From NCBI GenBank assembly GCA_038889235.1, contig JAWAHN010000003.1:323703-355702 (forward strand): a stretch of 32,000 nucleotides of DNA, given 5' to 3'. Source of the stretch: Candidatus Jordarchaeales archaeon (GTDB lineage: Archaea; Asgardarchaeota; Jordiarchaeia; Jordiarchaeales; Freyrarchaeaceae). The translations under genes and the position numbers were made by a program. This document shows positions 1,994 to 31,965 of the stretch, piece after piece (the stretch's first letter is position 1; each line of letters begins with the position of its first letter). Under the pieces are notes generated by a model that worked only from the letters and a program-made list of their open reading frames with translations, did no database searches and was not told the DNA's origin.

Positions 1994-3247
1994 ATGAAGG
2001 GTGATCTCGGATATATTGTTGAAGTTTTGGATGAAGCTTATGAGCGCTTGAAAGGTTCTTATTTGGAGTCATCTGTTCTCGGCCCTGCTAGGATTTACTC
2101 TGCCAGGAACGAGGTTGATAGGGAATTTTGGGTGTTGTTTTGTGCATTAGTGGATTTTCAAGTGCCTGTGATGAGTGTCTTGAAACCTATGTTGATGGGG
2201 CTTATTGAGTTCATGGAAAAGGAGAGGTTAAGGTTCATCGAGCTTATTCATGATGATGAATCGGCTAGAAGGGTGCTCAGCGAATTTAGCTGGGTTAGTG
2301 GTGGGGGCACCAGGAATATAGGTTTCAAGCACAGGTTTGTCAAAATTGACGACATAATCTCTCTTTTCAGAGTTTTTAGGAAGATCATTGAAGAGAAAGG
2401 CTCGCTTGGCTCCTTTGTAAAAGAAGTTTACGAGAAATCATTGAGCAGAGAAGAGCCTGTCGAGGGAGTTGTCTTCGGACTTGTAAAACTACTCAGCGGT
2501 TATGGTGGTAGGCCACCGCTAGTCCCCGTTGAGTGCACGTCTGCCCTTAAACGCTTAAACCTTTTTATGAGGTGGATGGTTAGACCTTACCCCGACCTTA
2601 ACCTGTGGAACTTCATCGATAAAAGACACCTTCTCGTTTCCCTAGATGACGGCTTGAGGAGGGTGTTGTCGAGGGCTTTCTCGGTTAACGTTAGGCCCAA
2701 CTGGCGTGGCGTCATCGACGCGACAAGGTTCCTAAGAAAGTTAAACCCGGACGACCCAGTGAAGTATGATTACCTGCTCTCCAGAGTCTCAATAATGGGG
2801 TACTGCGCTAAGGAGCTGGAGAAGTCAAGGTGCTACCTTTGCCCACTTGTGAACCTCTGCGAAGCGTCAAGGTTCAAGCCTGAGCCACACCACGTTCCCC
2901 TAAAGGGGAAAGAGCGGGAGATATTCGAAAAATTTCTTTCTGTTTACGGGGAAGAGTTCGACTCAGTTACAACGGAGTACCCATTGGAAGGTTATAGAGC
3001 TGACGCGGTTTTACACAGGAGGAGCTGCGAAACTTGGATTGTAGAGGTTGAGGAGAAGCTTAATTATAACGCGATAGGGCAAGTGGTGACGTACCGCTAC
3101 TTATTTTTTAAGACCCGTGGAGTGAAAGCTAAGCCAGTGATAGTGTGTTTGAGGAGCGACAAGAGACTGAGGGAAGCCTGTGAGGTGGAACAAGGAGTGG
3201 AGGTGGTCGAGGTGGGGGTTGAGCAGCATGGCTTTCGCATTGTTTAG
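1994..3247 (+). CDS. DUF2400/TIGR02757-like (endonuclease III HhH-related) protein with 4Cys Fe-S-like motif, fused to a C-terminal PD-(D/E)XK-like nuclease domain
   Basis: SALKRLNLFMRWMVR...DLNLW...VSLD...DPVKYDY are DUF2400 hallmarks. CAKELEKSRCYLCPLVNLC is C-x8-C-x2-C-x5-C. The C-terminal EYPLEGYRADAV...WIVEVEEKLNYNAIGQVVTY is restriction-endonuclease-like. Confidence 0.8.
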   Translation: MKGDLGYIVEVLDEAYERLKGSYLESSVLGPARIYSARNEVDREFWVLFCALVDFQVPVMSVLKPMLMGLIEFMEKERLRFIELIHDDESARRVLSEFSWVSGGGTRNIGFKHRFVKIDDIISLFRVFRKIIEEKGSLGSFVKEVYEKSLSREEPVEGVVFGLVKLLSGYGGRPPLVPVECTSALKRLNLFMRWMVRPYPDLNLWNFIDKRHLLVSLDDGLRRVLSRAFSVNVRPNWRGVIDATRFLRKLNPDDPVKYDYLLSRVSIMGYCAKELEKSRCYLCPLVNLCEASRFKPEPHHVPLKGKEREIFEKFLSVYGEEFDSVTTEYPLEGYRADAVLHRRSCETWIVEVEEKLNYNAIGQVVTYRYLFFKTRGVKAKPVIVCLRSDKRLREACEVEQGVEVVEVGVEQHGFRIV

Positions 3248-3371: not shown

Positions 3372-4649
3372 TTGGGGGGTATTGTCGTGATAGTTCAAGT
3401 TTCTGGTGACCCGGATAGGTATAGTAGTGTGAGGTATGTGTTGGGGGATCGTTTTGAGGAGGCTTGTTATAGTTCTGAGGCTTTGAGGAGGTTTTTGGGT
3501 GACGATGTTTTGCTCTTAGTTCCAGAAAGCCTGGCGGCTAATATTGATGATTTTAGGGAAAAGGTCAGGAAGAAGGGGTTGAACGAGTTTAAGTTGCACG
3601 TGATTCCGGCTGTGGGGGAGTATCTTGTCGATGGTTCTAGGAAGAGGTTTTTGACGAATTTCGATGATGTTGCCGTCGCAATTTTTCTTCACTTTTTGAT
3701 GGAAAAACCTGATAGACTTATTGTGGATATATCGACTGGACACAACGTATATACTGTTGCCATGGTTGAGGCGGCTAGGGGTTATGCCACTTACAGGAAG
3801 CTGGAGGACATATTGCAGGGTTCAGAGGGCGAGCCAGAGTTCAACGTGGAGATTGCGTCGTCTCCTCCAATAATGAAGGATGTTTCAGAAGTTGGCATTG
3901 AGTTGCATCCTTTGTCCGTGAAGGCTTTCTTTTCGCTCCCTGTAGCTGACCCCGACAAGCTACTTGGTAAAGGTGCTGGCAATGAACTCAAGAAAGTGGC
4001 TGGGGAGATAGGTAAGAAGTATACTGACCTCAAGAAGGGTTTTAGGAGCTTGTATGATGAGCTTCAAGTGGCTTTCAACGCTGTGAGGTACAATGTTCCA
4101 CTCGCCTTTTACACTCCTGAGGTTCTGGTGCTGAACCTGGACGCAGATGAAGTTGAGGTGGGTATGATTGAGTTTGTGAAGGAGCTTTTGAAGCCGCTCG
4201 ACGAAAACGAGGTCGTGAAAAGAATCCCCTTAAGCTTTAGGGCAATTTTAAACGTTTTTTACGCGATAGCGCTCTACAGGGGGTTCCAAAAGTTTATGAG
4301 AAGTCTCAGTGAGCCGAGCATCGAGGAGATCCGTAGAGTGTTCCTGCAACTGTACAAGAAGGAGAGCGTCGGAGCAGCGGTTAACGAGTACTTCCTGGAC
4401 AACGAGCTACGCAAGATAGAGGAGCTAAAGGAGAAGATAAGTGGGAAGGTGCGCCTTCTAGACCTCTATAGTGCCGGATGCACAGCGGAGGGAGTGCTTA
4501 GCGGCAGCTCGGATATTAAGAGGAACTTTTTCGCCCACAGTGGATTGCTAAAGGAGTGTACTGAGGTTGAACTTAAAAACGGCAAGATATACTTGAGCTG
4601 GACGAAGGATAGAGTTGGAGAGATAAAGAAGTGGCTGAAGAAACCGTAG
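3372..4649 (+). CDS. csx1: CRISPR-associated CARF-HEPN ribonuclease Csx1 (start may be GTG 3387)
   Basis: The N-terminal Rossmann/CARF region has DISTGHN (a DxTHG-family variant). The C-terminal HEPN motif is RNFFAHSG. The length of about 425 aa is typical. Confidence 0.9.
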   Translation: MGGIVVIVQVSGDPDRYSSVRYVLGDRFEEACYSSEALRRFLGDDVLLLVPESLAANIDDFREKVRKKGLNEFKLHVIPAVGEYLVDGSRKRFLTNFDDVAVAIFLHFLMEKPDRLIVDISTGHNVYTVAMVEAARGYATYRKLEDILQGSEGEPEFNVEIASSPPIMKDVSEVGIELHPLSVKAFFSLPVADPDKLLGKGAGNELKKVAGEIGKKYTDLKKGFRSLYDELQVAFNAVRYNVPLAFYTPEVLVLNLDADEVEVGMIEFVKELLKPLDENEVVKRIPLSFRAILNVFYAIALYRGFQKFMRSLSEPSIEEIRRVFLQLYKKESVGAAVNEYFLDNELRKIEELKEKISGKVRLLDLYSAGCTAEGVLSGSSDIKRNFFAHSGLLKECTEVELKNGKIYLSWTKDRVGEIKKWLKKP

Positions 4650-14850: not shown

Positions 14851-15813
14851 CTAACCCCTGCCGGCTTTAACTACCCTTCTTTGGAGCCACGAAGTGTACC
14901 TTCCGGGGGCTACCGCACCTAAGTACAACAGCACTACTGCTGTTACCATGAACACGAAGCCGGCTAACAGAAGCACGGTTAAGCCGCCCAGCAAGGTGTC
15001 AAGGACGTTGAAGAGGAAGAATACCAGCAGCATAACGAAACCTAGAGCAATAGTTTTGAGCCTAGCTGCCTTAATGCGGTCTTTCTCGTCTGAAGCCTTA
15101 CCACGCAGGAAGACTATCACCTGGATTATCGCGACCAGGTTGACGAGCAGCAGTAAGCCGTCCGAAATAAGCCCTATGTCTGGGTGTAGTTGTATGCTGA
15201 GTTCTGGGAGGGGGTCTAGTGCTCCGAGCACTCCTGCCTTCAGCTGCATGTCCAGCAAGCTAAACCTCGGAGCGTACGCTCCAAACCAGTTCATGGGGGA
15301 TACCGTTACGAGTAGGAGTATTGATAGTGGTGTGAGTACTGTTGCTTCTCTTTTGATTCCTGGGTCTTTTTGCTCAGCCATCCAGTGGCCGAACTTGAGC
15401 ATGAAGTAAGGAGCTATGCCTGCAAAAGCCACAGCCAAAGGGGCCCAGTGGGAGAAGGCGGGCGAGTGCCAGGAAAACGGGTTAAACGACATTCCTGTGG
15501 CTATGAAGGATCCTAGCCCGATAGAGGTGGCTGCGGCTCCCAGCGCGTAGAATGCTAGTGCTAGGGCGAAGTACTCTATTACGCGTCTCCCCACCCCAAC
15601 AAGCGGCCTTGAAGCCCTGTAGGCAGAAAGTGCAAGGACAGCTGCCACTGCAGCTGTTGCGCCATAGGTGATACAGAAAATCCATAACTTTGGATCGGCA
15701 ATAGATGGTATGGCTCCGAGAGCAATCTCTGTGGGAACAGTGTAGGCAGTGTAGGCGACCGCGAGAGCGAGGACGACTGCTGTGAACAGTACAGTGTAAC
15801 CTTTCGGCGTCAC
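14851..15813 (-). CDS. 8-TM receptor-like membrane protein, paralogue A
   Basis: 320 aa with eight hydrophobic helices, basic cytoplasmic loops and the tail LYLGAVAPGRYTSWLQRR. It aligns end to end with 18110..19063. Confidence 0.85.
   Translation of the reverse strand: MTPKGYTVLFTAVVLALAVAYTAYTVPTEIALGAIPSIADPKLWIFCITYGATAAVAAVLALSAYRASRPLVGVGRRVIEYFALALAFYALGAAATSIGLGSFIATGMSFNPFSWHSPAFSHWAPLAVAFAGIAPYFMLKFGHWMAEQKDPGIKREATVLTPLSILLLVTVSPMNWFGAYAPRFSLLDMQLKAGVLGALDPLPELSIQLHPDIGLISDGLLLLVNLVAIIQVIVFLRGKASDEKDRIKAARLKTIALGFVMLLVFFLFNVLDTLLGGLTVLLLAGFVFMVTAVVLLYLGAVAPGRYTSWLQRRVVKAGRG
15178..15292 (-). repeat. Inverted repeat block 3, 115 bp, identical to 18631..18745
   Basis: Direct base-by-base comparison: gaactggttt...cacccagac. 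Confidence 0.95.
15313..15422 (-). repeat. Inverted repeat block 2, 110 bp, identical to 18501..18610
   Basis: Direct comparison: caggcatagc...aatactccta. Confidence 0.95.
15526..15592 (-). repeat. Inverted repeat block 1, 67 bp, identical to 18331..18397
   Basis: Direct comparison: ggggagacgc...gcagccacc. Confidence 0.95.
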
Positions 15814-16097
15814 AATCTCTCACCTAATAGTTTACGTAAGAGGGGAGGATGCATAAAAAGCCTCCTTTTTCTGATGCGTGTAAACCCCGGGGAGAAGAGG
15901 GCTGTCCCGGGTTTCACGCGAACACAAACTCTATTTGGCACCGGGTACCAGCCAGGACGCTTTAAACCATTCGATATATATTTATCAAGACATTTTCTAG
16001 AGATTTCTATATACAATGCTTCTACGAGATGAGTGTCGAGTCGAGTTAGCGGAGTCCGAGGAAGAATAGAGACTTTAGAAACAGCGTGGTGGTTGCG

Positions 16098-17996
16098 ATG
16101 ATAATAGGGTACATGTTGCTTAGCGCTGGGGGAATACCGGTAGTTACTAGCAGTGCTATGGATATGATGGGGGATATGGAGTCCCTGTTCGCGGGAGCTA
16201 TGACCGCCATAAATAGTATAATAGCGGAGGTCATGAAGACTAGGGTTAGGTATGTGAGGACGGAAAAATACCACCTGTACTTCAGCTACTCTAGTGAGTT
16301 GACACTTGTGCTCATCTCTGAGGTTGAGGAACCCAGGCTGCATCAACTGGCTGACGCCGCGCTGAGCGAGGTGTTAAGGACGATCGATGACCCTTCAAGG
16401 CTCGCGTACGACTCTGACGCACAGAACTTCGTAAGCAAGGTGATCAGGGAGGTCCTCGCTAAGCGTCTACCTCCAATATCGGTCATAAGCAAGGTTGCAG
16501 ATATGCTAGCCGCATTATCAGATAGTATTAGAGGAGGCATGAAGCTAGGTCTGGGCAAAATAATTTTCATTCCAAGGGAGTTGAAAGTGGAAAAGGTGGA
16601 GGTGAAGGCTAAGGGGAAGGGGGACATCAAAAAACTCGTCGAACTGTTCTTGAACGGGGACTTAGAGAGCGTCGTCGAGGAGGCGCCGGCGTTTTTCGAG
16701 TCGGATCTGGCGAGGATCCTCTACGCTAAGGCTGCCTTAAAGATAAACTCTTTTCCGCCAGAGGTGAAGGCCCCGTCTCTAGATAGGGTCTACTCCGTTA
16801 TACTAAGCGTGAAGGACGACTTGGCAAGGTCTCTTCTCGCGGCGGAGCTGAGGAGGTTCCTAGAGGCGGGAACATACTATGAGAGAGAGAAACTGATTGA
16901 GGAAAAACTCTTCGAGCTAAGTGAGAAATTTAAGTTGGACTACGAGGGCGCCGGAGCGGTTTACATAGCCCTAACGTTGCCGGCGGGGAGAAGGGAGCTG
17001 CTAGAACTGGCTGAGCAGCTCATCGGAGAGCAATACCAGTATTTCAGGCAAATTTTGAAGACTACTCCCTCACTTCTGAAGTCATCCATCCTGAGTATAG
17101 GGGAGACAGAGGGGTGGAGCGCCGCTGTCGGTAGAGTGAAGTACGAGTCAAAGAGAGTGACACCGGGGCCGGTGGAGGCATCCTACAACTACCTCCTAGC
17201 CTTTCAGCTCGCCATACTATGTGGCTTAGTTGAGGGGGGCTTGGACTTCGAAGCCGGCCGCGAACTGCTCAGCGACGCCATAAGGGAAGCTGAGAAGAAG
17301 TATGATTCTCTAAGAAAGCTGTCTAAAAACGTTCCCAGCGACGTGCTGGCGGCAAACTACTGGTTCACCTATAACGCTCTCACGGGCATACTGATGTTCA
17401 CTCTTCCCGCCGAAGATATAGAGAAGGAGATGTTAAAGTATGGGGAGAGGATAGCTGAAGTAGTAAGCTGGCTTATGGATGCAGCTAAGAGGAACAGGAT
17501 TTCAGTGGACATGTACATCTTGGCAATGGCTGGGATGCTAGCGGCATACTCGCGACTGATGTTCCTCCTAGGGACCCCGATCCCGGACCTTCCATACTAC
17601 GTTAAGCAGTTAGCCATCCCCGAGCTGGAACGCATATGGGACTACTCCCCCCACCACTACCTACACTTGGTCATGGACTGCCTTGAAGCATTAGGCCACA
17701 CGGCAAGCTTCCTACCCATGGAAACAGCGAGGAAAAACATACTAAAGGAAATAGCAGCAAACCTGGAGGAAATATACAAGACAGCCAGTCACACGCCTGT
17801 AATGTCTATTCTCGCAGCTCTAAGCGCCACAAGGTTTTACGTCCTATGCGGAGACGAAGAGGCAAAAGAGAAAGCAAGAAAGCTTGCGGAAAAAATCTCG
17901 GAGGTAAACGAGTTCTTCGCCTCACTTGTTGAAAAAACCATAAACATAGATAAAGCCCTGAGGAGGAAGCCGTCCCCATACGACGTGTTTGTATAG
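16098..17996 (+). CDS. N-terminal longin/roadblock-like domain protein with a long alpha-helical (solenoid-like) C-terminal region
   Basis: The N-terminus follows the longin beta-beta-alpha-beta-beta-beta-alpha order: IIGYMLLS-AGGIPVV / SLFAGAMTAINSIIAEV / VRYVRT-YHLYFSY-LTLVLIS / RLHQLADAALSEV. The remaining ~520 aa are amphipathic helices. Start is ATG 16098 or GTG 16086. Confidence 0.75.
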   Translation: MIIGYMLLSAGGIPVVTSSAMDMMGDMESLFAGAMTAINSIIAEVMKTRVRYVRTEKYHLYFSYSSELTLVLISEVEEPRLHQLADAALSEVLRTIDDPSRLAYDSDAQNFVSKVIREVLAKRLPPISVISKVADMLAALSDSIRGGMKLGLGKIIFIPRELKVEKVEVKAKGKGDIKKLVELFLNGDLESVVEEAPAFFESDLARILYAKAALKINSFPPEVKAPSLDRVYSVILSVKDDLARSLLAAELRRFLEAGTYYEREKLIEEKLFELSEKFKLDYEGAGAVYIALTLPAGRRELLELAEQLIGEQYQYFRQILKTTPSLLKSSILSIGETEGWSAAVGRVKYESKRVTPGPVEASYNYLLAFQLAILCGLVEGGLDFEAGRELLSDAIREAEKKYDSLRKLSKNVPSDVLAANYWFTYNALTGILMFTLPAEDIEKEMLKYGERIAEVVSWLMDAAKRNRISVDMYILAMAGMLAAYSRLMFLLGTPIPDLPYYVKQLAIPELERIWDYSPHHYLHLVMDCLEALGHTASFLPMETARKNILKEIAANLEEIYKTASHTPVMSILAALSATRFYVLCGDEEAKEKARKLAEKISEVNEFFASLVEKTINIDKALRRKPSPYDVFV

Positions 17997-18109
17997 GCAG
18001 GAAATCCTCTCTTCGAGAGAGCAACGCAGCCGGGTGAAAGAACGTCTCAAATAAAACTATATAGACGCCGGCTTTTTTGTAAAGGTGAGTTGAGTGTGGA
18101 GGAGTTGTT

Positions 18110-19063
18110 GTGGAGCCTAAGGGTTATGTTGCGCTTTTTGCTGTAGTAGCCTTCGCCTTCGCGTTTGTCTACACCACTTACACTATTCCAGCGCAGGCGG
18201 CTCTCGGAGCGATTCCTTACTTTGTTGACGCTAGAGTACGGGTTGCTCATTTTGTTTACGGGGGTATAACTGTAGTTGCGGCGCTTTTGGCACTATTTGC
18301 CTACAAGGCTTCGAGACCCCTGGTTGGGGCGGGGAGACGCGTAATAGAGTACTTCGCCCTAGCACTAGCATTCTACGCGCTGGGAGCCGCAGCCACCACC
18401 ATAGGACTAGCATTTTTCATAATCACGGGAATGTCGTTCAATCTAACCACATGGCATGGACTCGTCTACCCCTGCTGTATTCCCGTGGCAATGATGTTTT
18501 CAGGCATAGCTCCTTACTTCATGCTCAAGTTCGGCCACTGGATGGCTGAGCAAAAAGACCCAGGAATCAAAAGAGAAGCAACAGTACTCACACCACTATC
18601 AATACTCCTAGTAGCAATGACGCTTCCTACGAACTGGTTTGGAGCGTACGCTCCGAGGTTTAGCTTGCTGGACATGCAGCTGAAGGCAGGAGTGCTCGGA
18701 GCACTAGACCCCCTCCCAGAACTCAGCATACAACTACACCCAGACGTAAGGCTCCTCGCAAATGGTCTACTATTATTCGTCAACTTGGTGGCATTAATCC
18801 AGATAATCGTGTTTTTGCGTCGTAGAATTGTGAGTGAGACGGAGCACTTGAAGGCTGCCAGGCTCAGAACGGTACTATTCGGCTTCCTAGCTATGCTAGG
18901 ATTCTTCGCCTGCTACACACTTGACGCGTTGATGGGAGGAGGTTACACTGTCCCATTGTTTGTTGGCTTCGTCTTCGGCATAACAGCTTTAATATTGTTG
19001 TATATTGGAGTGGCGGCTCCCAAGTGGTACACGTCATGGATCCAGAAAAGAGCAAAAAGTTAA
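18110..19063 (+). CDS. 8-TM receptor-like membrane protein, paralogue C
   Basis: 317 aa with the same TM layout as 14851..15813 and the tail LYIGVAAPKWYTSWIQKR. Confidence 0.85.
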   Translation: MEPKGYVALFAVVAFAFAFVYTTYTIPAQAALGAIPYFVDARVRVAHFVYGGITVVAALLALFAYKASRPLVGAGRRVIEYFALALAFYALGAAATTIGLAFFIITGMSFNLTTWHGLVYPCCIPVAMMFSGIAPYFMLKFGHWMAEQKDPGIKREATVLTPLSILLVAMTLPTNWFGAYAPRFSLLDMQLKAGVLGALDPLPELSIQLHPDVRLLANGLLLFVNLVALIQIIVFLRRRIVSETEHLKAARLRTVLFGFLAMLGFFACYTLDALMGGGYTVPLFVGFVFGITALILLYIGVAAPKWYTSWIQKRAKS

Positions 19064-19829
19064 ACAAGCAGAAAAGATGCAGCCCCCGCAATTACTAACT
19101 TTTGCCATTGAACACGTCAACAGGCAGCTAAACTTTCTCAAAAGGCATTCATACATCAAAAAACTCACCACAAATCGTAAGTTCAAATAGAAAGTTGGAA
19201 CGAAAACCAACGTGACCTCACACTAGGAGACTGCTAGCTAAAAAATCCTAGAAAGACTTTAAAGGAGCATTCATTCTGGCTCAAGCCCTCCCAACACCTT
19301 TTAACTCTTTTTTACTTTAAGGCAGAAATCGGCCTTTTAATTTCTAATACGGAAATTTTTAAGGGAGCTATGAAGAGAGCCTAAGTAAATCTCTCAAATT
19401 TTTCAACTACATACAACACCCCTTTACTCCTCGTGAATTGAAAATCTTGGTTTCGGCACGCTTATTGCATCCCTTTTACCCGTACTTTTCCTCTACTGGC
19501 TTACGCTTTCAAACCTCACAAACTGATTTAAGTAAAAAACAAGCCAGAAGCGATGCGAAACACAATCAACTATTGCTTATCTACTATTAAGAGGATTCAC
19601 GGGGGTCTAAATTTAGCTCATCGCACGTAAATTTTACTTAATAAAGCAATCATTCATCCATTTACATAAAATCCAAATCCTAAAAGAAGTTCACCAAATA
19701 GTTGAAAATCTCAACACAGAATACCCCTGCCTCTTTTTAAGTGAAATTTTAAGTAACATAAGTTTTTATTTTTGTGTCAATCATAATTATTTTAGTTATA
19801 ATTATTTTAGTCAGGGTGGTTGGGGAGTA

Positions 19830-21114
19830 ATGGGAGCCGTTCCTTTGTTTGACCGTAGTGTGGTTAAAATAACGTCTATTTTCGTCGCTGTAATGTTAGG
19901 CATTGTTCATCCTGCCTTTTGCTTCTTAACTTGTAAGAACCAATTTATTGAAACAATTTCTTTCTCGGGTTTAACGTTTGCTACTTTATTTGGCATCGGT
20001 ATTCTTTCAGGACTCCTACTGTGGGTCTGGTTAGGTAAGGAGCTGGGGCATAGGGCTTTTGGTGTTTGTGATTTTGAAAGTCCAACTAGAAGAATTGTCT
20101 TTGCGTGGTCCTTGGTTATTCCTGCTTCACTTCTCGTAGCAACGCCAACTCTATCTGTACTGACTATTCTGTATATAATTGGCCTACTCGAACTTTTCCC
20201 TGCAACATTTCTTAGCATCTTTGCAGTTATACTTGGTTTTTTTATCATATGGATCCTGATGAACAATGTCCAGTTCAGAGAATCCATTGAGGTTTATCCA
20301 AAACCAATCATAATGCTCACTATGATTATATTATTTATTACAGCATTAGTCGTAGTCCTCTATTTTATTTATGTTTCAATTAGCAATTGGCAAAACAACC
20401 TTCGGATTCTATTTTTTATCTTACCATCACTATGGCTCCTGCTCACTAAAACGATCCCTATCCTAAATTTGCCTGAAGCCGGATCAATTGTACTTTTCTC
20501 GGGAGTGCTCCTATCTATATATATCATTACGGGCGCTGTGATCTTCATATTCTATGCTTTTAGGTATATTGAAGAAACTAGAAAAGAAGTTACTAGCAAT
20601 CAAGGTTTAATTATTGTTATGAAAGCAGGTGAAAATAAGGATGTTAAGTGGGAAGAATTAAAAAGAGAGTTTTCAAGTCTAAGGGGAGAGGTTTGGGCAA
20701 GTTTACCTTACTTGGATGAAGATTCGGTAGAAATTCTTGAAGAAATTCCCGAAGATACGAAAGTACATATTATCACAGGCGTGGTGAACAGTAAGTTTAA
20801 AGAAAAAAATACAAAATTTAAAACGAAAAAAATTACGAATAGTTAAAATAAGTAAAAAAGAACAAGATAGCCCTGTGATCCATGATAGAATTGTAGTAGC
20901 TACTAATAAAATTCTAATTATAGGAACAGATATTAAAAAGTCAAGCCTTAACAAAGATACATTAATTTTAAGTCTTCAAACCGATAAAATCAAAGACGTA
21001 GAGAAATTGGTTAACCTTTTGAAAGAATACTGGAATAAAAAGGACTACGAATTGGAAGAGCAACACAATGCACGTAGAGAAACAATATATCAATACCGAG
21101 ACGAAAAGGAATAA
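19830..21114 (+). pseudogene. Multi-TM protein with a C-terminal PLD-fold (HDR-type) domain, split by a frameshift in an A7 run
   Basis: ORF 19830..20846 has about 7 TM, then WASLPYLDEDSVEIL...VHIITG. Removing one A from 20803-20809 gives EKIQNLKRKKLRIVKISKKEQDSPVIHDRIVV...LIIGTDIK, which joins ORF 20875..21114 into about 427 aa. Confidence 0.7.
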
Positions 21115-22132
21115 CGTTAACAGAATGTTAGAAGAAATTAGTTAATTTAACTCGATAACTTAATTGTGTTCATAATGAAAATTATTTTTATCTTCGCTTA
21201 AATTCTTGTAAAGAGATTCGTTAATTTTAGGTTTATTGTGCGTGGTGTCTTTGGTTCGTCTTTGAAGTGTTCTTCTGTGTCTTTGTATTTTTGTCTTCGC
21301 AACTTCCCCTTTTTTGTACTTCTTTTCTTGTGACGCAGATGCTTTCTTTATGTTTTTTGCTCTTATTTTTCGATGAGTTGGTTAGATGTGTGATTTTTGG
21401 GTTTGTTTGGCTTAGCGGTGGGATGAAGATAGTTTATCGTGAATGTGTTGTACCGGGGACTTGTTGAGCTCGACTATTGTTCCGATCTCGTGCTCTGCTC
21501 TTTTTCGTATAGTGGGGGACGTTGAATCTTAATATGTTGAGTCTTATTTGGAGGTAGAGTTCATTTTTTTCTGAATTTTCGACCTCACTTGTGAGGCATT
21601 TGTAGAGTCTGTTAATGAATTGTTTTCGTTACGCAGCTCCGTTCGTAGGAGTTTTGAGCTCAATAGAATCTGAAAAACCAGGATCCGCTTCGGCTTATTC
21701 GGGACTGAATGGTTCATGTTCTTCAATTGATTGTTATGCTTGCTGAATGTTAATTTGCTGATGGAGGTAATTAGTTTTCTCGTGACATTAGGATTCATAG
21801 AAGTAAATTTTACTGAAGGAGGTTTAGAAGCGAATTATGAAAGAATTAAGGAAGTTCCTCGGGAAGGCAAGAGAACAAGAGATTTACGGATTCAACCTTT
21901 GGTCGAGAAGGCGATGTTCCGAAAGACCGACATGAAAAGCACAAGGAAAACTTAAAAGACAAATAAAAAGGCCATATAGAGGCGAAAGAGCCGCAAAACA
22001 TGGGGATTGAAGGGAGGGTGGGTGTCTTCTTTTTGTGGCGGTGTCTTTTTGAGGTGAAACGAGTTTCTTGCGTGTTGGGGGTTTGAAGCGTTTTGTGTGG
22101 TGGGGTGAGTTTTATGTGTGATGGAAGGAGGT

Positions 22133-24800: not shown

Positions 24801-25220
24801 TTACCTCTGCTTTTTCTTTGTCACTTTCACGATTCCCTCATCTGCATCCACAACTACGTGGTCTCCCGTTTCTATTACTTCAAGAGGGTTCCTGTCTAGG
24901 TTGTCTATGAAGGGTATCTGTGCGAGTATTGCTCCCGTCAAGAGTATTTCTTCGCTTTTCACGTTGATTATGGCTGCTGGAGCCGTGCCACGCTTCTTCA
25001 TGGCGTAGACGGCGAAGGGGTTGTACGTCGTTCCTTTCCCGTAGGGGAATACGAGGACTTTCCCCTTAACGCTTTTCCCCTCTATTTCGTGCCCTTTCTC
25101 GATCACTATCCCAGTGTTCGGGTCTACGCCTCCAACGAAGGATATCGGCTGCCTTGAGACTAGCGCTTCTCCCTCAGCCTTCCCCCCAACCAGTCCACGT
25201 CCCTTCAAAACCAGGCTCAT
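24801..25220 (-). CDS. Aconitase X swivel-domain (small) subunit, DUF126
   Basis: LKGRGLVGGKAEGEALVS..ISFVGGVDP.TG...GKVLVFPYGKG matches the family. ATG 25220 overlaps the large-subunit stop (TAATG). Confidence 0.92.
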   Translation of the reverse strand: MSLVLKGRGLVGGKAEGEALVSRQPISFVGGVDPNTGIVIEKGHEIEGKSVKGKVLVFPYGKGTTYNPFAVYAMKKRGTAPAAIINVKSEEILLTGAILAQIPFIDNLDRNPLEVIETGDHVVVDADEGIVKVTKKKQR

Positions 25221-26458
25221 TACTTTCCCCTCCACCTCCCGGTTAATGCCGCCTGTATGCATTCACGCGTGCTCCCATAAAGGTGTTCGACTCCTGGAGC
25301 GTAGTAGGCTGACCTCGGAGAGTTTGTTGCTACGACTTTAACGCCTCTCGCAGCGAAGGGCGCGCCGGGCCCCATGCAAATGTTAGTAACGACTAGGCCG
25401 CCTGCTTTCTCAATTGTCTGTGTCCACCCAGCCTTGTCAGCCACGACCTTAACCTGGTAGGATGTCCCAACCCAGAGCTTTACACCGTCATGCACTTTTT
25501 TGCCCTCAAGCATACTGGCTATCTCCCTTATCTCGCTGTACGTCAGATGTGGGCAACCAAAGTTCACCATGTCAACCTTGTCCTCGCCGGTAGTGGAGAT
25601 CTCATCGTACGCCGCCTTTACGTCCGACATGTCAACCTGGACTTTCTCGGGCTTCTCCCCTCCGCACGCTGCCTCGAGCGTTGGGGCCTCCGGGGTCAAA
25701 CCGGGTATGTGGAACATGGGTATAGCTCCGCTGACGTGGAGCGGTGAGGCGATAGCCCTAAGCTGTTCTAAACTGAGCTTTTTCGGGAGGCCAATGAACG
25801 CGGGAATCTCGGTGCCCACAACTTTTCCCACGTGGAACGCCAGCGCCCCCCAGTCGGCGTCGCTAAACTCCTTGAAGTCAAGCCTACTGCAGTCGACCAC
25901 AACACGCGCCCTTCTGTTCTCCTTCAACAATAACCCGTACTCGGGCGCCCTCCCTGTGATCGCAACACAGTAGTTCGTTACTATTCCATCCATGTTTCCG
26001 CGCGCTCCGAGAACGGAGTTAGCGAAAACAACTCCGGCGGAGCCAGTCCACGAGAAGACGTCGCCCGGCATAAGGAAGTCTCCGAGGAGGTACTGGATGC
26101 ATGTGCCCATAGGTATGACGCCCATCTTGAGGGAGTAGCTGAAGATCTGCTCTGCAAGCTGCTTTATCTCCGGCGAGTTCCCGTATATGGTGCCGACCTC
26201 CTCCCAGTGCTCGTAGTCTATGCCCCAGGGATGCCTCGTCGTGAAACACCTGAAGCGTGCACCACCCTGAATAAGCCTCTCATACCACTCAACCTCTTCG
26301 AGAAACAGTCCGGCAGCGACGTGCGCGCTCTTGGCTTCAACCATCCTCTCCGCACCGTAAGCCTCGGCAACTTTTACAAGTATCCTCATAGCTTCCTGGG
26401 TAGCAGCTCCATACTCCCCGTCAAACATCCTTTCTTCTTCCTTCGTGAGGAAGACCAC
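25220..26458 (-). CDS. Aconitase X catalytic (large) subunit, DUF521
   Basis: FLTKEEERMFDGEYG, FANSVLGAR.N, GCPH and three candidate Fe-S cysteines (GTCIQY, GCPH, NICM). Confidence 0.92.
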   Translation of the reverse strand: MVFLTKEEERMFDGEYGAATQEAMRILVKVAEAYGAERMVEAKSAHVAAGLFLEEVEWYERLIQGGARFRCFTTRHPWGIDYEHWEEVGTIYGNSPEIKQLAEQIFSYSLKMGVIPMGTCIQYLLGDFLMPGDVFSWTGSAGVVFANSVLGARGNMDGIVTNYCVAITGRAPEYGLLLKENRRARVVVDCSRLDFKEFSDADWGALAFHVGKVVGTEIPAFIGLPKKLSLEQLRAIASPLHVSGAIPMFHIPGLTPEAPTLEAACGGEKPEKVQVDMSDVKAAYDEISTTGEDKVDMVNFGCPHLTYSEIREIASMLEGKKVHDGVKLWVGTSYQVKVVADKAGWTQTIEKAGGLVVTNICMGPGAPFAARGVKVVATNSPRSAYYAPGVEHLYGSTRECIQAALTGRWRGK

Positions 26459-29148: not shown

Positions 29149-29847
29149 TTACTTTTTCTTAATGTATTTCTTGAGAGCGGTGAAGGCGCATCTCCGCACC
29201 CATTCGTCCTTGTCTCCCATCATGTCTTTGAGCTTCTTTACTACTCCTGGAGCGGTGAGCCCTCTTTCGGCGTACTTTGCGAGTGCGATTGCTGCTAGCC
29301 CGCACACTTTCTTGTCCTCGTCGCTTAGAAGCCTAACAAGTTTTTCAAGCGCACCTCGATCTGTCTTCTTTTTCGTAGCGTAGACTGCAAGTGCTATGGC
29401 TGCGTAGCCTCGTGTGGTGTTCTTCTCGTCATCCAGCAGCTTGACTAGCTTTTCTAGCGCTTTCGAGTCAACTATCCCTTTGTCAGCGTATTTTGCAAGC
29501 GCATAGGCCGCGTAACCTCGAACGAAGCCGTCCTCGTCTTCAAGCAGTTTAACAAGCTTCTTTGTAGCTTTCGGCTCCGTTAAGTTTCTGTCGGCATACT
29601 TTGCGAGGGCGTATGCGGCGTTCCCGCGCGTCACAGCGTTCTCGTCATCCAATAGCTCGACGAGTTTCTTGGGCACGCTGGGCTCAGTTACCCCTCTCAA
29701 GGCGTATTTTGCGAGCGCGTAGGCCGCGTAGCCGCGCATTTCTCCATCGTCAGAGTCCAGCATTTCGATGAGTTTTTCAATAGACTCTGGGATTGCAAAT
29801 CCTCTTTCAACGTACTCTACAAATCTTTCCGCCACATCCTCCCTCAC
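29149..29847 (-). CDS. HEAT-repeat protein
   Basis: Five complete 36-aa repeats plus one partial, consensus LVxLLxDExxxxRGYAAYALAKYA. Confidence 0.9.
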   Translation of the reverse strand: MREDVAERFVEYVERGFAIPESIEKLIEMLDSDDGEMRGYAAYALAKYALRGVTEPSVPKKLVELLDDENAVTRGNAAYALAKYADRNLTEPKATKKLVKLLEDEDGFVRGYAAYALAKYADKGIVDSKALEKLVKLLDDEKNTTRGYAAIALAVYATKKKTDRGALEKLVRLLSDEDKKVCGLAAIALAKYAERGLTAPGVVKKLKDMMGDKDEWVRRCAFTALKKYIKKK

Positions 29848-30429
29848 GCAGCCCCCACCTCAGACAGAAGCCAGAAGCTACCTTCCGAGTCTCTCTGGGA
29901 AGAAAGGGGATCTCGCAGGATTTATTTTTTGTGTTGCATTTAGAATGGATAACGCAAAGACTCGCGGGGGATCTGACCAGGGAAGACAGAGGGCATGAAT
30001 TTCCGCACTAAGTCAGCGAGTGACAACTCTACTAACAGTGAGCAAATAGCTTTACCACTCGGAGGTTTAAGTGGATCCGCACACATGGAGGCGCGGGCGG
30101 AATAGTAGACTAGCAAAGTAGCGTGCCACCGGACTCTTATTCTTCGTAGGGGCTATTTAGGGAAGCGAGTAGGCGAGACAAGAACCTTGGGTTTTTCAGA
30201 GGAGCTCTAAAAATTCTTTGCTGTTTTCTGGCAGTTTAGACGGCTTGGGTCACGTGAAATGTTGCTCGGCGCTCAACAGCGAGGCCTCGGTCTTTCAGCT
30301 TCCCCAGACTATTTGCCTACTTTTGAGTCCTAGTTAGAGAGGCTTCTGTTCACGTTTTTAAGAAGCTATTTATTTATGATGTTTGAATTACAGTATCACT
30401 TATTGTGGAACCTTTTCGGAGGGAGTTTA

Positions 30430-31965
30430 GTGGCTGGGTTTGTTGTTGCCTGGGATTTTGGGACAAGCAGCGTTAAGAGTGTTGTGTGCACGACTGAGGG
30501 CGAGATTGTCGGCTCCGCTGTGGCTGGTTACGAGCTCTACCATCCTCAGCCTGGGTGGGCGGAGCAGAATCCTAAAGAGTGGTGGGCTGCCGTTTCCAAG
30601 TCGACAAGGGAGGCTGTTGAAGCCGCTAAGGTTAGCGTGGGCGATATTGAGGCTGTCTCCATCTCGGCGCAGATGGCTGGACTGGTGCCAGTCGACCGGA
30701 GAGGGGAGCCGCTTAGGCCGGCGATAATATGGCTTGACAACAGGGCTGAGAAGCAGGCTAAGCAGCTGGCGGGCAACATAATTTCTATGCTTCTGACCTT
30801 TGTGAGGATAACTGGCGGGGCCCCGGGACCTAAGGATGTGGTATCGAAGATCGTCTGGCTTAAGGAGAACGAGCCGCAAGTGTTCGAGAAGGCGTACAAG
30901 TTCCTTGACGCGAAGGACTACATCATTTTCAGGCTTACAGGCAAGTACTACACTTCTTGGGACTGTGCAAGCGTAACTTGGATGTTTGACAGTAGGAAGG
31001 GGAAGATGAAATGGTCTGAGACTATATGCAGGAAGGCTGGCATACCAATAGAGAAGCTCTGTGAGCCTGTTCCGTCGCCTACGATAGTCGGTGAGTTGAC
31101 GGCTGACGCAGCTAAAGACCTCGGGCTTAAAGAGGGAACGCCGGTGGTCTGCGGTTGCGGGGACATCACGGCTGCTACCGTTGGGAGCGGGGCTGTGAGG
31201 GAGAAGCAGGTCCACGCGTATATAGGGACTAGCAGCTGGGTTGTGGCCCCTGTGAGGGACAGAAAGCTAAGCATAAGGTACTACATTGGCTCACTCTGCA
31301 GCGCCGACCCAACGAAGTACATTTTGGTTGGTGAACAGGAGTGCTCGGGTGTCTGCTACAGGTGGCTTAGAGACAATCTAGGTTACAAGTATGTGGTTGA
31401 AGGTGAAAGGGAGAGGCTGGAGGCTTACAAGATCATGGATAGGGTGGCGGCGGAGGCTGAACCAGGCTCGAAGAAATTGATCTTTACCCCGTGGATGTAC
31501 GGTGAGCGCTCACCTCTAAACGACCACACTGTTAGAGGCGGATTCATAAATTTGAGTCTGACGCATAGCGAGGCACATGTTTTGAGGGCGGTGCTCGAAG
31601 GGGTAGCATACCACATGCGGTGGATTCTTGAAGGGGTGCAGAAGCTCATAGGCAAAGTTACCTCGATCAACCTTATAGGAGGCGGGGCTCAAAGCGACTT
31701 GTGGTGCCAGATAATAGCAGATGTCACGGGGTCCGTGGTTAGGCAAATGAAGGACCCGCTGGAAGCGGGGTCCCGAGGCGCAGCACTCACAGCCTCCGTG
31801 GCTTTAGGCTACTACAAGAGCTTCGACGAGCTTGAGAAAGTCGTCCCGGTCAGAAAGGAGTTCGAGCCAAACCCGGCAAACAGGGAAATATATGACGAAC
31901 TTTACCAGAAGTTCAAATTGGTGTACAAAAAGCTGAAGAAGATGTACAAGGAGCTCAACAAGTAA
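30430..31965 (+). CDS. FGGY-family carbohydrate kinase (xylulokinase-like)
   Basis: WDFGTSSVK, PAIIWLDNRA, GDITAATVG, YIGTS, GERSP, RAVLEGVA and GGGAQSDLWCQIIADV are family motifs. Likely start is GTG 30430 after a GGAGGGAG RBS (track start 30376). Confidence 0.93.
   Translation: MAGFVVAWDFGTSSVKSVVCTTEGEIVGSAVAGYELYHPQPGWAEQNPKEWWAAVSKSTREAVEAAKVSVGDIEAVSISAQMAGLVPVDRRGEPLRPAIIWLDNRAEKQAKQLAGNIISMLLTFVRITGGAPGPKDVVSKIVWLKENEPQVFEKAYKFLDAKDYIIFRLTGKYYTSWDCASVTWMFDSRKGKMKWSETICRKAGIPIEKLCEPVPSPTIVGELTADAAKDLGLKEGTPVVCGCGDITAATVGSGAVREKQVHAYIGTSSWVVAPVRDRKLSIRYYIGSLCSADPTKYILVGEQECSGVCYRWLRDNLGYKYVVEGERERLEAYKIMDRVAAEAEPGSKKLIFTPWMYGERSPLNDHTVRGGFINLSLTHSEAHVLRAVLEGVAYHMRWILEGVQKLIGKVTSINLIGGGAQSDLWCQIIADVTGSVVRQMKDPLEAGSRGAALTASVALGYYKSFDELEKVVPVRKEFEPNPANREIYDELYQKFKLVYKKLKKMYKELNK

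Follow-up and report, generated by a model that had tools for sequence, protein, structure and literature searches.

A longin-like gene between two paralogous 7TM receptor-like genes in a Jordarchaeales archaeon, and a recurrent longin-7TM gene pair in Asgard archaea

Gene layout and the 7TM proteins

As part of an analysis of a 32,000-nucleotide stretch of DNA from a Candidatus Jordarchaeales archaeon (below, the window), we followed up an earlier note on three adjacent genes. Gene A (positions 14851 to 15813, minus strand) encodes a protein of 320 amino acids, gene B (16098 to 17996, plus strand) one of 632 amino acids and gene C (18110 to 19063, plus strand) one of 317 amino acids. Genes A and B are divergently oriented with a spacer of 285 nt; C is co-directional with B and lies 113 nt downstream of it. 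The start of B was placed at the ATG of position 16098, where its homologues begin, although the frame extends to a GTG at 16086 as well. The earlier note had described A and C as paralogues with eight hydrophobic helices that bracket B, and this description holds: all three open reading frames are present, and an end-to-end alignment of A with C has 207 of 314 positions identical (66%, E 1e-143). They are the only two copies of this 7TM gene in the 2.14-Mb genome.

Hydropathy and an AF2 model indicate eight transmembrane (TM) helices followed by a C-terminal amphipathic helix, that is, a stand-alone protein with an N-terminal helix in front of a 7TM core. Clusters of K and R residues follow helices 2, 4, 6 and 8, with 20 such residues in residues 66-77, 140-155, 237-253 and 305-319, compared with 3 in the opposite loops. 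This distribution predicts an overall N-in/C-in topology, in which helices 2-8 run N-out/C-in, the 7TM layout that had been deduced from the basic loops. No Pfam or NCBIfam domain was found in A or C, in agreement with the claim that neither protein carries a kinase, cyclase or other output domain.

The AF2 model of A has a pLDDT of 90.5 and a pTM of 0.88. When it was compared with solved structures, the best 50 matches were all 7TM receptors, rhodopsins or PAQR proteins, which aligned with residues 35-312 at Z 11-14, with sequence identities of 6-13% and Z values in a range that is common for helical bundles. The sensor modules HisKA_7TM, 7TMR-DISM and GPCR-PIPK have TM scores of 0.54-0.65 to this model. 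A receptor-like fold of helices 2-8, as originally suggested, is thus backed by a high-confidence model whose matches, apart from the PAQR proteins, are HisKA_7TM sensor modules, GPCRs and rhodopsins only, and four fold searches gave no support for reading A and C as transporters or enzymes. Seven TM helices with the N-terminus outside and the C-terminus inside, which characterise the GPCR/rhodopsin type, are what helices 2-8 present according to the model, the charges and the fusion protein described next.

One of 27 profile hits, the protein P0013, carries GAF, HisKA and HATPase_c domains behind the same 8-TM module (E 7e-57); it is the sole kinase fusion among the cluster representatives (1 of 27). 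Since the kinase part of P0013 is cytoplasmic, the C-terminus of the 7TM module is placed in the cytoplasm as well, and because the module here precedes GAF-HisKA-HATPase, the A/C family is a sensor-type input domain. Its most conserved positions, Y297 and P303, are the only nearly invariant ones in the family alignment and lie where the last helix ends on the cytoplasmic side. The HisKA_7TM profile (PF16927, gathering score 28.6 bits) matches neither of the two proteins even at E<=1, nor did it match in a six-frame search of the archaeon's own genome. An hhalign comparison of the alignment A3 with 11 Asgard HisKA_7TM segments gave a probability of only 55% and an E-value of 1.2e-4, over 111 columns.

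Genes A and C also share an inverted repeat, with a left arm in A (15099 to 15666) and a right arm in C (18257 to 18824). The arms contain blocks of exact identity, for example 15178-15292 and approximately 15313-15422 in A, and 18631-18745 and approximately 18501-18610 in C. Between A and C, dS is 0.05 within the identity blocks and 1.63 elsewhere, and this 30-fold reduction indicates gene conversion between the two genes. The shared low-dS parts correspond to cytoplasmic loops 1-2 and the long outer loop, while the divergent parts have a dN/dS of about 0.2 and are therefore under purifying selection. In two contigs from sister metagenome-assembled genomes (L007 and L008), the two arms are joined in the inverted configuration, and the intervening segment is inverted. 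The gene order in a congener is B, 7TM gene, decayed B fragments, 7TM gene, which shows that the longin and 7TM genes were duplicated together; the window itself holds no trace of a second B copy. Concerted evolution of A and C fits two receptors that are served by one B. The locus offers a natural experiment, in which one adaptor goes with two receptors, gene conversion keeps the cytoplasmic loops of these receptors alike, and the arrangement is invertible.

The protein encoded by gene B

The product of gene B, whose orthologues are 55-76% identical, appears to combine a longin/roadblock-like N-domain with a long all-helical body. The N-domain (residues 1-125, positions 16098 to 16472, plus strand) is homologous to proteins of about 150 amino acids whose genes precede 7TM genes in other Asgard lineages: these small proteins match the B N-domain in HMM searches (E 1e-7 to 6e-10), and alignment A6 joins them to B residues 1-150. 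Across this family of small proteins and the B N-domain, Fuz_longin_1 (PF19036) was detected in 7 of 16 members (best E 3.9e-7), Robl_LC7 (PF03259) in 5 of 16 and Sybindin in 3 of 16. Two relatives pass the curated cut-offs, one a neighbour of the 7TM gene at locus L062 (Fuz_longin_1, 30.8 bits) and the other a protein at locus L057 (Robl_LC7, 25.4 bits). B itself scores 13.1-16.5 bits against Fuz_longin_1, under the cut-off of 26.1, and is below every Pfam cut-off; in a ranking of its own genome for this domain it is third (E 0.014). The B N-domain is thus best assigned, through its relatives, to a longin/roadblock-like family. Of the proposal that the N-terminus of B is longin-like, the part that stands is homology to proteins that pass Pfam cut-offs; B alone does not reach them, and its AF2 model is poor. 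That model, built from five sequences, has a mean pLDDT of 46.7, and the N-domain is unfolded in it (pLDDT 20-40, and 21-42 for residues 1-96). With respect to the order of structural elements, the conserved blocks of A6 fit the longin order (beta-beta-alpha-beta-beta-beta-alpha) rather than the roadblock order, as judged by eye only.

The region of B from approximately residue 175 to 612 (16620 to 17933, plus strand) is predicted to be a helical repeat of TPR/solenoid-like type, being all-helical by DSSP in the low-confidence model. No Pfam repeat matches it, and an ESM Atlas model has a TM score of 0.46 to Asgard TPR proteins. A Foldseek search with the low-confidence model of B returned TM scores of 0.1-0.28 only and carries no meaning. 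A profile of the B N-domain found one truncated orthologue and nothing more in a set of 5.8 billion proteins. A longin-Arf fusion protein from the same genome scores above the Fuz_longin_1 cut-off, and an hhalign comparison of this fusion with the B N-domain was weak (E 0.015, probability 3%). A match between the B profile and DENND10 among PDB sequences (E 0.045 over 45 residues) was taken as chance, and a DENN-like C-terminal part of longin proteins of 350-364 amino acids was not borne out by Pfam. A paralogue of B, termed B2, and its homologue in genome G042 adjoin a rubrerythrin gene and have no 7TM neighbour; B-type proteins are therefore not dedicated to 7TM partners.

A longin-7TM gene pair in Asgard archaea

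Members of the 7TM family are present in 106 of the 301 Asgard genomes in the sample and in 33 of 70 genera, mostly as proteins of about 250 amino acids with seven hydrophobic segments. Genes for homologues of B residues 1 to approximately 125, with lengths of 137-164 amino acids, directly adjoin the 7TM gene in 42 pairs from 39 genomes, and in 8 more genomes, so that the pair is present in at least 47 genomes of this sample. The genomes belong to 11 coded families (f1, f5, f9, f13, f14, f17, f21, f25, f27, f28 and f30). In most families the longin gene lies upstream of the 7TM gene on the same strand; in f9 the two genes are divergent. At three loci (L045, L046 and L053) they overlap by 4-14 nt. 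When 17 7TM loci were inspected without prior knowledge, 9 had no detectable longin neighbour. All Jordarchaeales-like contigs seen (L001, L002, L004, L007, L008, L055 and L056) retain the order of B followed by a 7TM gene, as does one member of f17.

A recurrent adjacency of longin and 7TM genes, which the earlier note had raised as a possibility, is thus conserved far beyond this order. The note had also envisaged a small GTPase as part of the arrangement, and this idea fared less well, as none was found beside any cassette examined or within the window. No kinase was found in the window or in the related cassettes either. In one genus, a 200-aa, a 150-aa and a GNAT protein are conserved neighbours; none of them is a GTPase, and their conservation does not extend beyond this genus. 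From these gene neighbourhoods, B and its 7TM gene appear to be the Jordarchaeales version of a widespread Asgard cassette of two genes, a longin-like gene and then a 7TM gene, with a helical extension on the longin protein and an extra helix on the receptor. We did not find this pairing as a described system in the literature searched.

A candidate signalling unit and its alternatives

These results are consistent with the hypothesis that A and C each act as a stand-alone sensor in the membrane, built around a 7TM receptor-type core, and that B is their cytoplasmic partner, with a longin/roadblock domain and a helical scaffold. We consider this hypothesis reasonably probable, and the longin-7TM pair in general is likely a signalling unit. 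A stimulus received within the membrane or from outside would alter the 7TM protein on its cytoplasmic face, formed by loops 1-3 and the C-terminal helix, and this face would then bind or release the longin protein. The longin protein would in turn act on a target encoded elsewhere, possibly one of the approximately 14 Arf/Ras-like GTPases of the genome, with the helical body of B serving as a scaffold. In this sense we infer a GPCR-like signalling logic for A, C and B. A complex prediction for C with full-length B, run without controls, gave a score of 0.00, which is below the mark and counts neither for nor against an interaction. Neither a ligand nor a GTPase partner came to light for the 7TM proteins, nor did a conserved polar pocket.

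The conserved and tightly coupled gene pairing could also mean that the 7TM protein senses no ligand and is a membrane anchor, which tethers the longin protein, and with it a GTPase or another complex, in the manner of LAMTOR1-Ragulator or of SR-beta and the SRX longin domain. Longin and roadblock domains are known modules of membrane platforms (PMC3747258), the location of the most conserved residues, Y297 and P303, on the cytoplasmic side would suit such a role, and so would the lack of an identified conserved polar pocket. However, a bundle of seven helices far exceeds what anchoring needs, the same 8-TM module is the N-terminal input of the GAF-histidine kinase P0013, and in fold this module comes closest to the sensor modules of kinases, cyclases and phosphatases. 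We therefore regard a pure anchor as unlikely.

The 7TM protein might also act as a transporter or as a membrane enzyme, such as a hydrolase resembling PAQR proteins or alkaline ceramidases, with the longin protein as an accessory or regulatory subunit. ACER3 (Z 12.3) and adiponectin receptor 2 (Z 11.8) are indeed among the structural matches, but they make up 2 of the 50, and their scores tie with those of the GPCR and rhodopsin matches. Furthermore, the family alignment lacks a conserved His/Asp/Glu metal triad, and no transporter fold appeared in any fold search, which makes this reading highly improbable. It is also very unlikely that the three genes have no functional link in this genome, being neighbours by descent only, with B now serving other partners. 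The 113-nt spacer between B and C contains a TATA-like box and a T-run, so the two genes may not be co-transcribed; A is divergent from B, and B2 is paired with rubrerythrin. Against this stand the retention of the B-to-7TM order in the Jordarchaeales-like contigs and the f17 member, and of the homologous order of small longin gene and 7TM gene across many families.

Asgard archaea have many small GTPases and longin/roadblock proteins, and published work has remarked that partners are seldom revealed by operons (PMC10933270). A sensor paired with a longin protein would be a concrete candidate signal input to these proteins, and two conserved, often translationally coupled genes define a protein pair that is amenable to biochemistry. 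If the pair works as proposed, it bears on how signalling from receptors to trafficking arose before eukaryotes. A bolder version, which we regard as rather doubtful, is that the cassette is an archaeal receptor-to-GTPase pathway. Here, the 7TM protein would sense a signal and switch a longin regulator of GEF/GAP type for Arf/Rag/Rab-like GTPases encoded elsewhere, the B solenoid would recruit effectors, and recombination between A and C would reshuffle receptor halves. If true, this pathway would be a prokaryotic forerunner of the control that membrane receptors exert over longin-type GTPase regulators in eukaryotes.

The proposed sensor-partner unit of A, B and C resembles several known systems in part. 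Actinobacterial conservons, which have been likened to G-protein-coupled signalling, consist of CvnA (sensor kinase-like), CvnB (roadblock/MglB), CvnC and CvnD (a Ras-like GTPase) (PMC13343842, PMC13621833). As in the cassette, a membrane sensor and a protein of the roadblock/longin superfamily share one operon. However, a conservon has four core genes, whereas the locus has two kinds of gene, one for a membrane sensor and one for a longin/roadblock-like protein; the Asgard cassette lacks a kinase domain, a CvnC-type protein and a GTPase, its sensor is a 7TM bundle, and its lineage is archaeal. Within the same phylum and domain superfamily as B, published longin/roadblock proteins are paired, in fusions or operons, with GTPases, DENN or two-component domains (Liu et al. 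2020, bioRxiv 10.1101/2020.10.19.343400; Tran et al. 2024, PMC10933270). Eukaryotic GPCRs and microbial rhodopsins share with A and C seven N-out/C-in helices and a membrane-parallel helix after the last TM segment, but sequence identity is low, as given above, and shared motifs, a heterotrimeric G protein or a retinal lysine are not in evidence. The HisKA_7TM and 7TMR-DISM modules of bacterial and archaeal histidine kinases, cyclases and phosphatases are likewise seven-helix bundles with a cytoplasmic C-terminus. In contrast to HisKA_7TM, A and C are stand-alone, carry the extra N-terminal helix and have no Pfam HMM match; the kinase-fused architecture is shared by P0013 but absent from A and C. 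Bona fide HisKA_7TM genes do occur in Asgard genomes, at loci separate from those of the 7TM family.

The locus and the fold of its membrane proteins

The three open reading frames reported in the earlier note are present as it described them: gene A (14851-15813, minus strand, 320 aa), gene B (ATG at 16098, 632 aa), which lies between A and C and is co-directional with C, and gene C (18110-19063, plus strand, 317 aa). A and B are divergent, with a spacer of 285 nt. The spacer between the same-strand genes B and C spans 113 nt and contains a TATA-like box, a T-run and a GGAGG ahead of the C start; co-transcription of B and C is uncertain. None of the three proteins has a Pfam or NCBIfam assignment, and the named database relatives are all annotated as "Candidatus Jordarchaeales archaeon", which identifies the window as Asgard archaeal DNA. 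A and C are paralogues from end to end, as had been proposed (66% identity over the whole length, E 1e-143), and are the sole two copies of their family in the 2.14-Mb genome.

A profile search with the A/C family against 1.84 billion representatives yielded 27 relatives. The AlphaFold2 model of A, built with a 25-sequence alignment of the 7TM family (pLDDT 90.5, pTM 0.88), has eight transmembrane (TM) helices and a C-terminal amphipathic helix (residues 304-319). The loops after helices 2, 4, 6 and 8 hold 20 K/R residues versus 3 in the opposite loops, so helices 2-8 should run N-out/C-in, which bears out the predicted layout. When residues 35-312 of A were compared with solved structures, the best 50 matches were all GPCRs, microbial rhodopsins or PAQR-type 7TM proteins with Z of 11-14, a range common for helical bundles, and these matches thus show the fold class of the modelled protein, not its kinship. 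Among predicted structures, the best match overall was an unnamed Asgard cluster of ~250 aa (TM 0.68/0.85), and the best named matches were HisKA_7TM, 7TMR-DISM and GPCR-PIPK sensor modules (TM 0.54-0.65). No transporter or enzyme fold stood out in the structure searches with A, and the return of HisKA_7TM, GPCR and rhodopsin classes agrees with the 7TM receptor-type fold suggested before.

In one homologue, P0013 (703 aa), GAF, HisKA and HATPase_c domains follow this 8-TM module. The fusion shows that the module can provide the membrane-bound input to a histidine kinase, that its C-terminus is cytoplasmic and that the family is of sensor type. A and C are not members of Pfam HisKA_7TM itself, whose HMM matches neither protein; hhalign of the 7TM family against 11 Asgard HisKA_7TM segments gave a probability of only 55%. 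A distant 7TM homologue, P0016 (contig L011, 375-4157), is arranged back to back with a second paralogue of 358 aa; ahead of P0016 are genes for a WD40 propeller protein and for a Cys-rich protein (247 aa) that belongs to no known family.

The longin-like domain and its coupling to 7TM genes

Full-length orthologues of B (55-76% identical) are confined to Jordarchaeales-like genomes, and four other coded families have remoter relatives of full length. AlphaFold2 left the N-domain of B unfolded (mean pLDDT for B, 46.7). However, the B profile matches small proteins of 137-177 aa at B residues 2 to ~120, and the blocks common to these proteins and the B N-terminus are, by eye, consistent with the strand and helix order of longin domains. 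Members of this alignment match Fuz_longin_1 (7/16), Robl_LC7 (5/16) and Sybindin (3/16) in Pfam, and two of the small longin-like proteins score above curated cut-offs. This homology, together with the Pfam matches of the family, places the N-domain of B in the longin/roadblock superfamily at the family level, with longin-versus-roadblock topology unsettled. The description of B as a longin-solenoid protein therefore holds for the family of its N-domain, but B itself matches Fuz_longin_1 only below threshold (residues 9-92, E 0.11). Residues ~175-612 are predicted to be all-helical and weakly resemble Asgard TPR proteins.

Members of the 7TM family are present in 106 of the 301 Asgard genomes that were sampled, representing 33 of 70 genera; most are proteins of ~250 aa with seven hydrophobic segments. 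Crossing 7TM coordinates with longin-profile matches revealed at least 42 longin-7TM pairs less than 1 kb apart in at least 39 genomes, a lower bound that rests on 150 of ~1,480 longin-profile matches. Among 17 further 7TM loci picked without a known longin neighbour, eight have one, and at one more locus, L059, a bona fide Robl_LC7 gene lies upstream of the 7TM gene. By a rough estimate (~10 longin-like genes in ~3,000, related genomes not being independent), chance adjacency is below 1% per locus. The recurrent arrangement that the earlier note proposed to look for is conserved across 11 coded families (f1, f5, f9, f13, f14, f17, f21, f25, f27, f28 and f30). For most of them the longin gene sits immediately ahead of the 7TM gene in the same orientation, and at three loci (L045, L046 and L053) the two overlap by 4-14 nt; in f9 the two genes are divergent. 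At several loci (L047, L085, L096) one longin gene is followed by two 7TM paralogues. The small GTPase envisaged as a possible further member was found beside none of the cassettes examined, and none of the 14 Arf-like and 13 Robl_LC7 matches of the own genome falls within the window.

Other longin-like proteins were also seen. A 648-aa protein of the same genome (L013 5523-7469, G000:C2) has a sub-threshold Fuz_longin_1 N-terminus, a long coiled-coil-like body and no 7TM neighbour. Proteins of 350-364 aa (L100 2082-3134, L101 2265-3326, L102 2283-3377) combine a cassette-type longin domain (E 1e-30) with an unassigned C-terminal domain of ~210 aa, which looks DENN-like by eye and has no Pfam match; each adjoins a small 3-4-TM protein.

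Duplication, gene conversion and inversion

In the Jordarchaeales-like version, the longin protein bears a helical extension of ~480 aa, and the receptor carries one more helix at its N-terminus as well as 26 inserted residues in the outer loop that follows helix 5. The order of B followed by 7TM is kept in all seven Jordarchaeales-like contigs seen (L001, L002, L004, L007, L008, L055 and L056). In a congener (L001), the order is B, 7TM, two stop-ridden B fragments (E 1e-11 and 7e-37) and 7TM. The fragments, two short ORFs at L001 11335-11930 (G006:C15:6020-6509), match B residues ~120-224 and 545-631. The pair was therefore duplicated as a unit, and the second B then decayed. No such remnant is left in the window.

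Together, A and C make up an inverted repeat of 568 nt (82% identity) with blocks of exact identity, the longest being 115 nt (15178-15292 = 18631-18745). The divergent parts have a dN of 0.34 and a dS of 1.63, whereas dS is 0.05 at residues 73-96 and 131-212, which indicates gene conversion rather than constraint on the protein alone. The regions made alike are the first two cytoplasmic loops and the long outer loop, and the congener's two paralogues share their own version of loop 2.

Two other MAGs (contigs L007 and L008, ~99% nucleotide identity) encode P0007, an exact chimera of C residues 1-166 and A residues 167-320. Within the region 15099-18824, both have the segment between the repeats (the 5′ half of A, B and the 5′ half of C) inverted relative to the window. 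This inversion could reflect a switch, driven by recombination, that shuffles receptor halves, or it could be a fixed difference between strains. Repeats of 110-115 nt and the existence of two independent assemblies make an assembly error less likely.

Possible role and genomic surroundings

Through its cytoplasmic face, the 7TM protein might relay a membrane or external stimulus to the longin protein, and the latter would act on a target encoded elsewhere. The best-conserved positions of the 7TM family, Y297 and P303, lie where the last helix reaches the cytoplasm. Longin and roadblock domains are established small-GTPase platforms (PMC3747258); that the target here is a GTPase is conjecture, and a full receptor-to-GTPase pathway is considered unlikely. 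A dedication of B-type proteins to 7TM partners calls for caution because B2, a 633-aa paralogue of B (E 1e-107; G000:C3:320793-322640, L065 5773-7674) which lies some 1-3 kb to the left of the window, has a same-strand rubrerythrin gene after it (L065 5221-5769, Pfam 50.7 bits), and the B2 homologue in genome G042 likewise precedes rubrerythrin and not a 7TM gene. At L067, in an Asgard genome other than this one, the paired genes overlap by 4 nt. B-type proteins may thus be adaptors with interchangeable partners.

The closest published systems are the actinobacterial conservons, which combine a membrane sensor kinase-like protein, a roadblock protein, CvnC and a Ras-like GTPase (PMC13343842, PMC13621833), and an Asgard roadblock-Rab-DENN operon and longin fusions to two-component domains (10.1101/2020.10.19.343400). 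We found no description of the longin-7TM cassette in the literature searched; a 2026 preprint merely lists "7TM proteins" among Asgard ESP families.

Elsewhere in the window are genes for a DUF2400 protein (1994-3247), a Csx1-type CARF-HEPN protein (3372-4649), aconitase X (25220-26458), a 231-aa HEAT-repeat protein (29149-29847) and an FGGY sugar kinase (30376-31965). A congener has the FGGY kinase gene immediately ahead of B, which shows that gene order around the locus has changed. Directly after C is a low-GC stretch (19064-22132; 36-37% versus ~50%) containing a multi-TM gene (19830-20846) whose 338-aa product lacks a family assignment; a congener has a 74%-identical copy of it, just as low in GC, after its last 7TM paralogue (L001 13287-14546).
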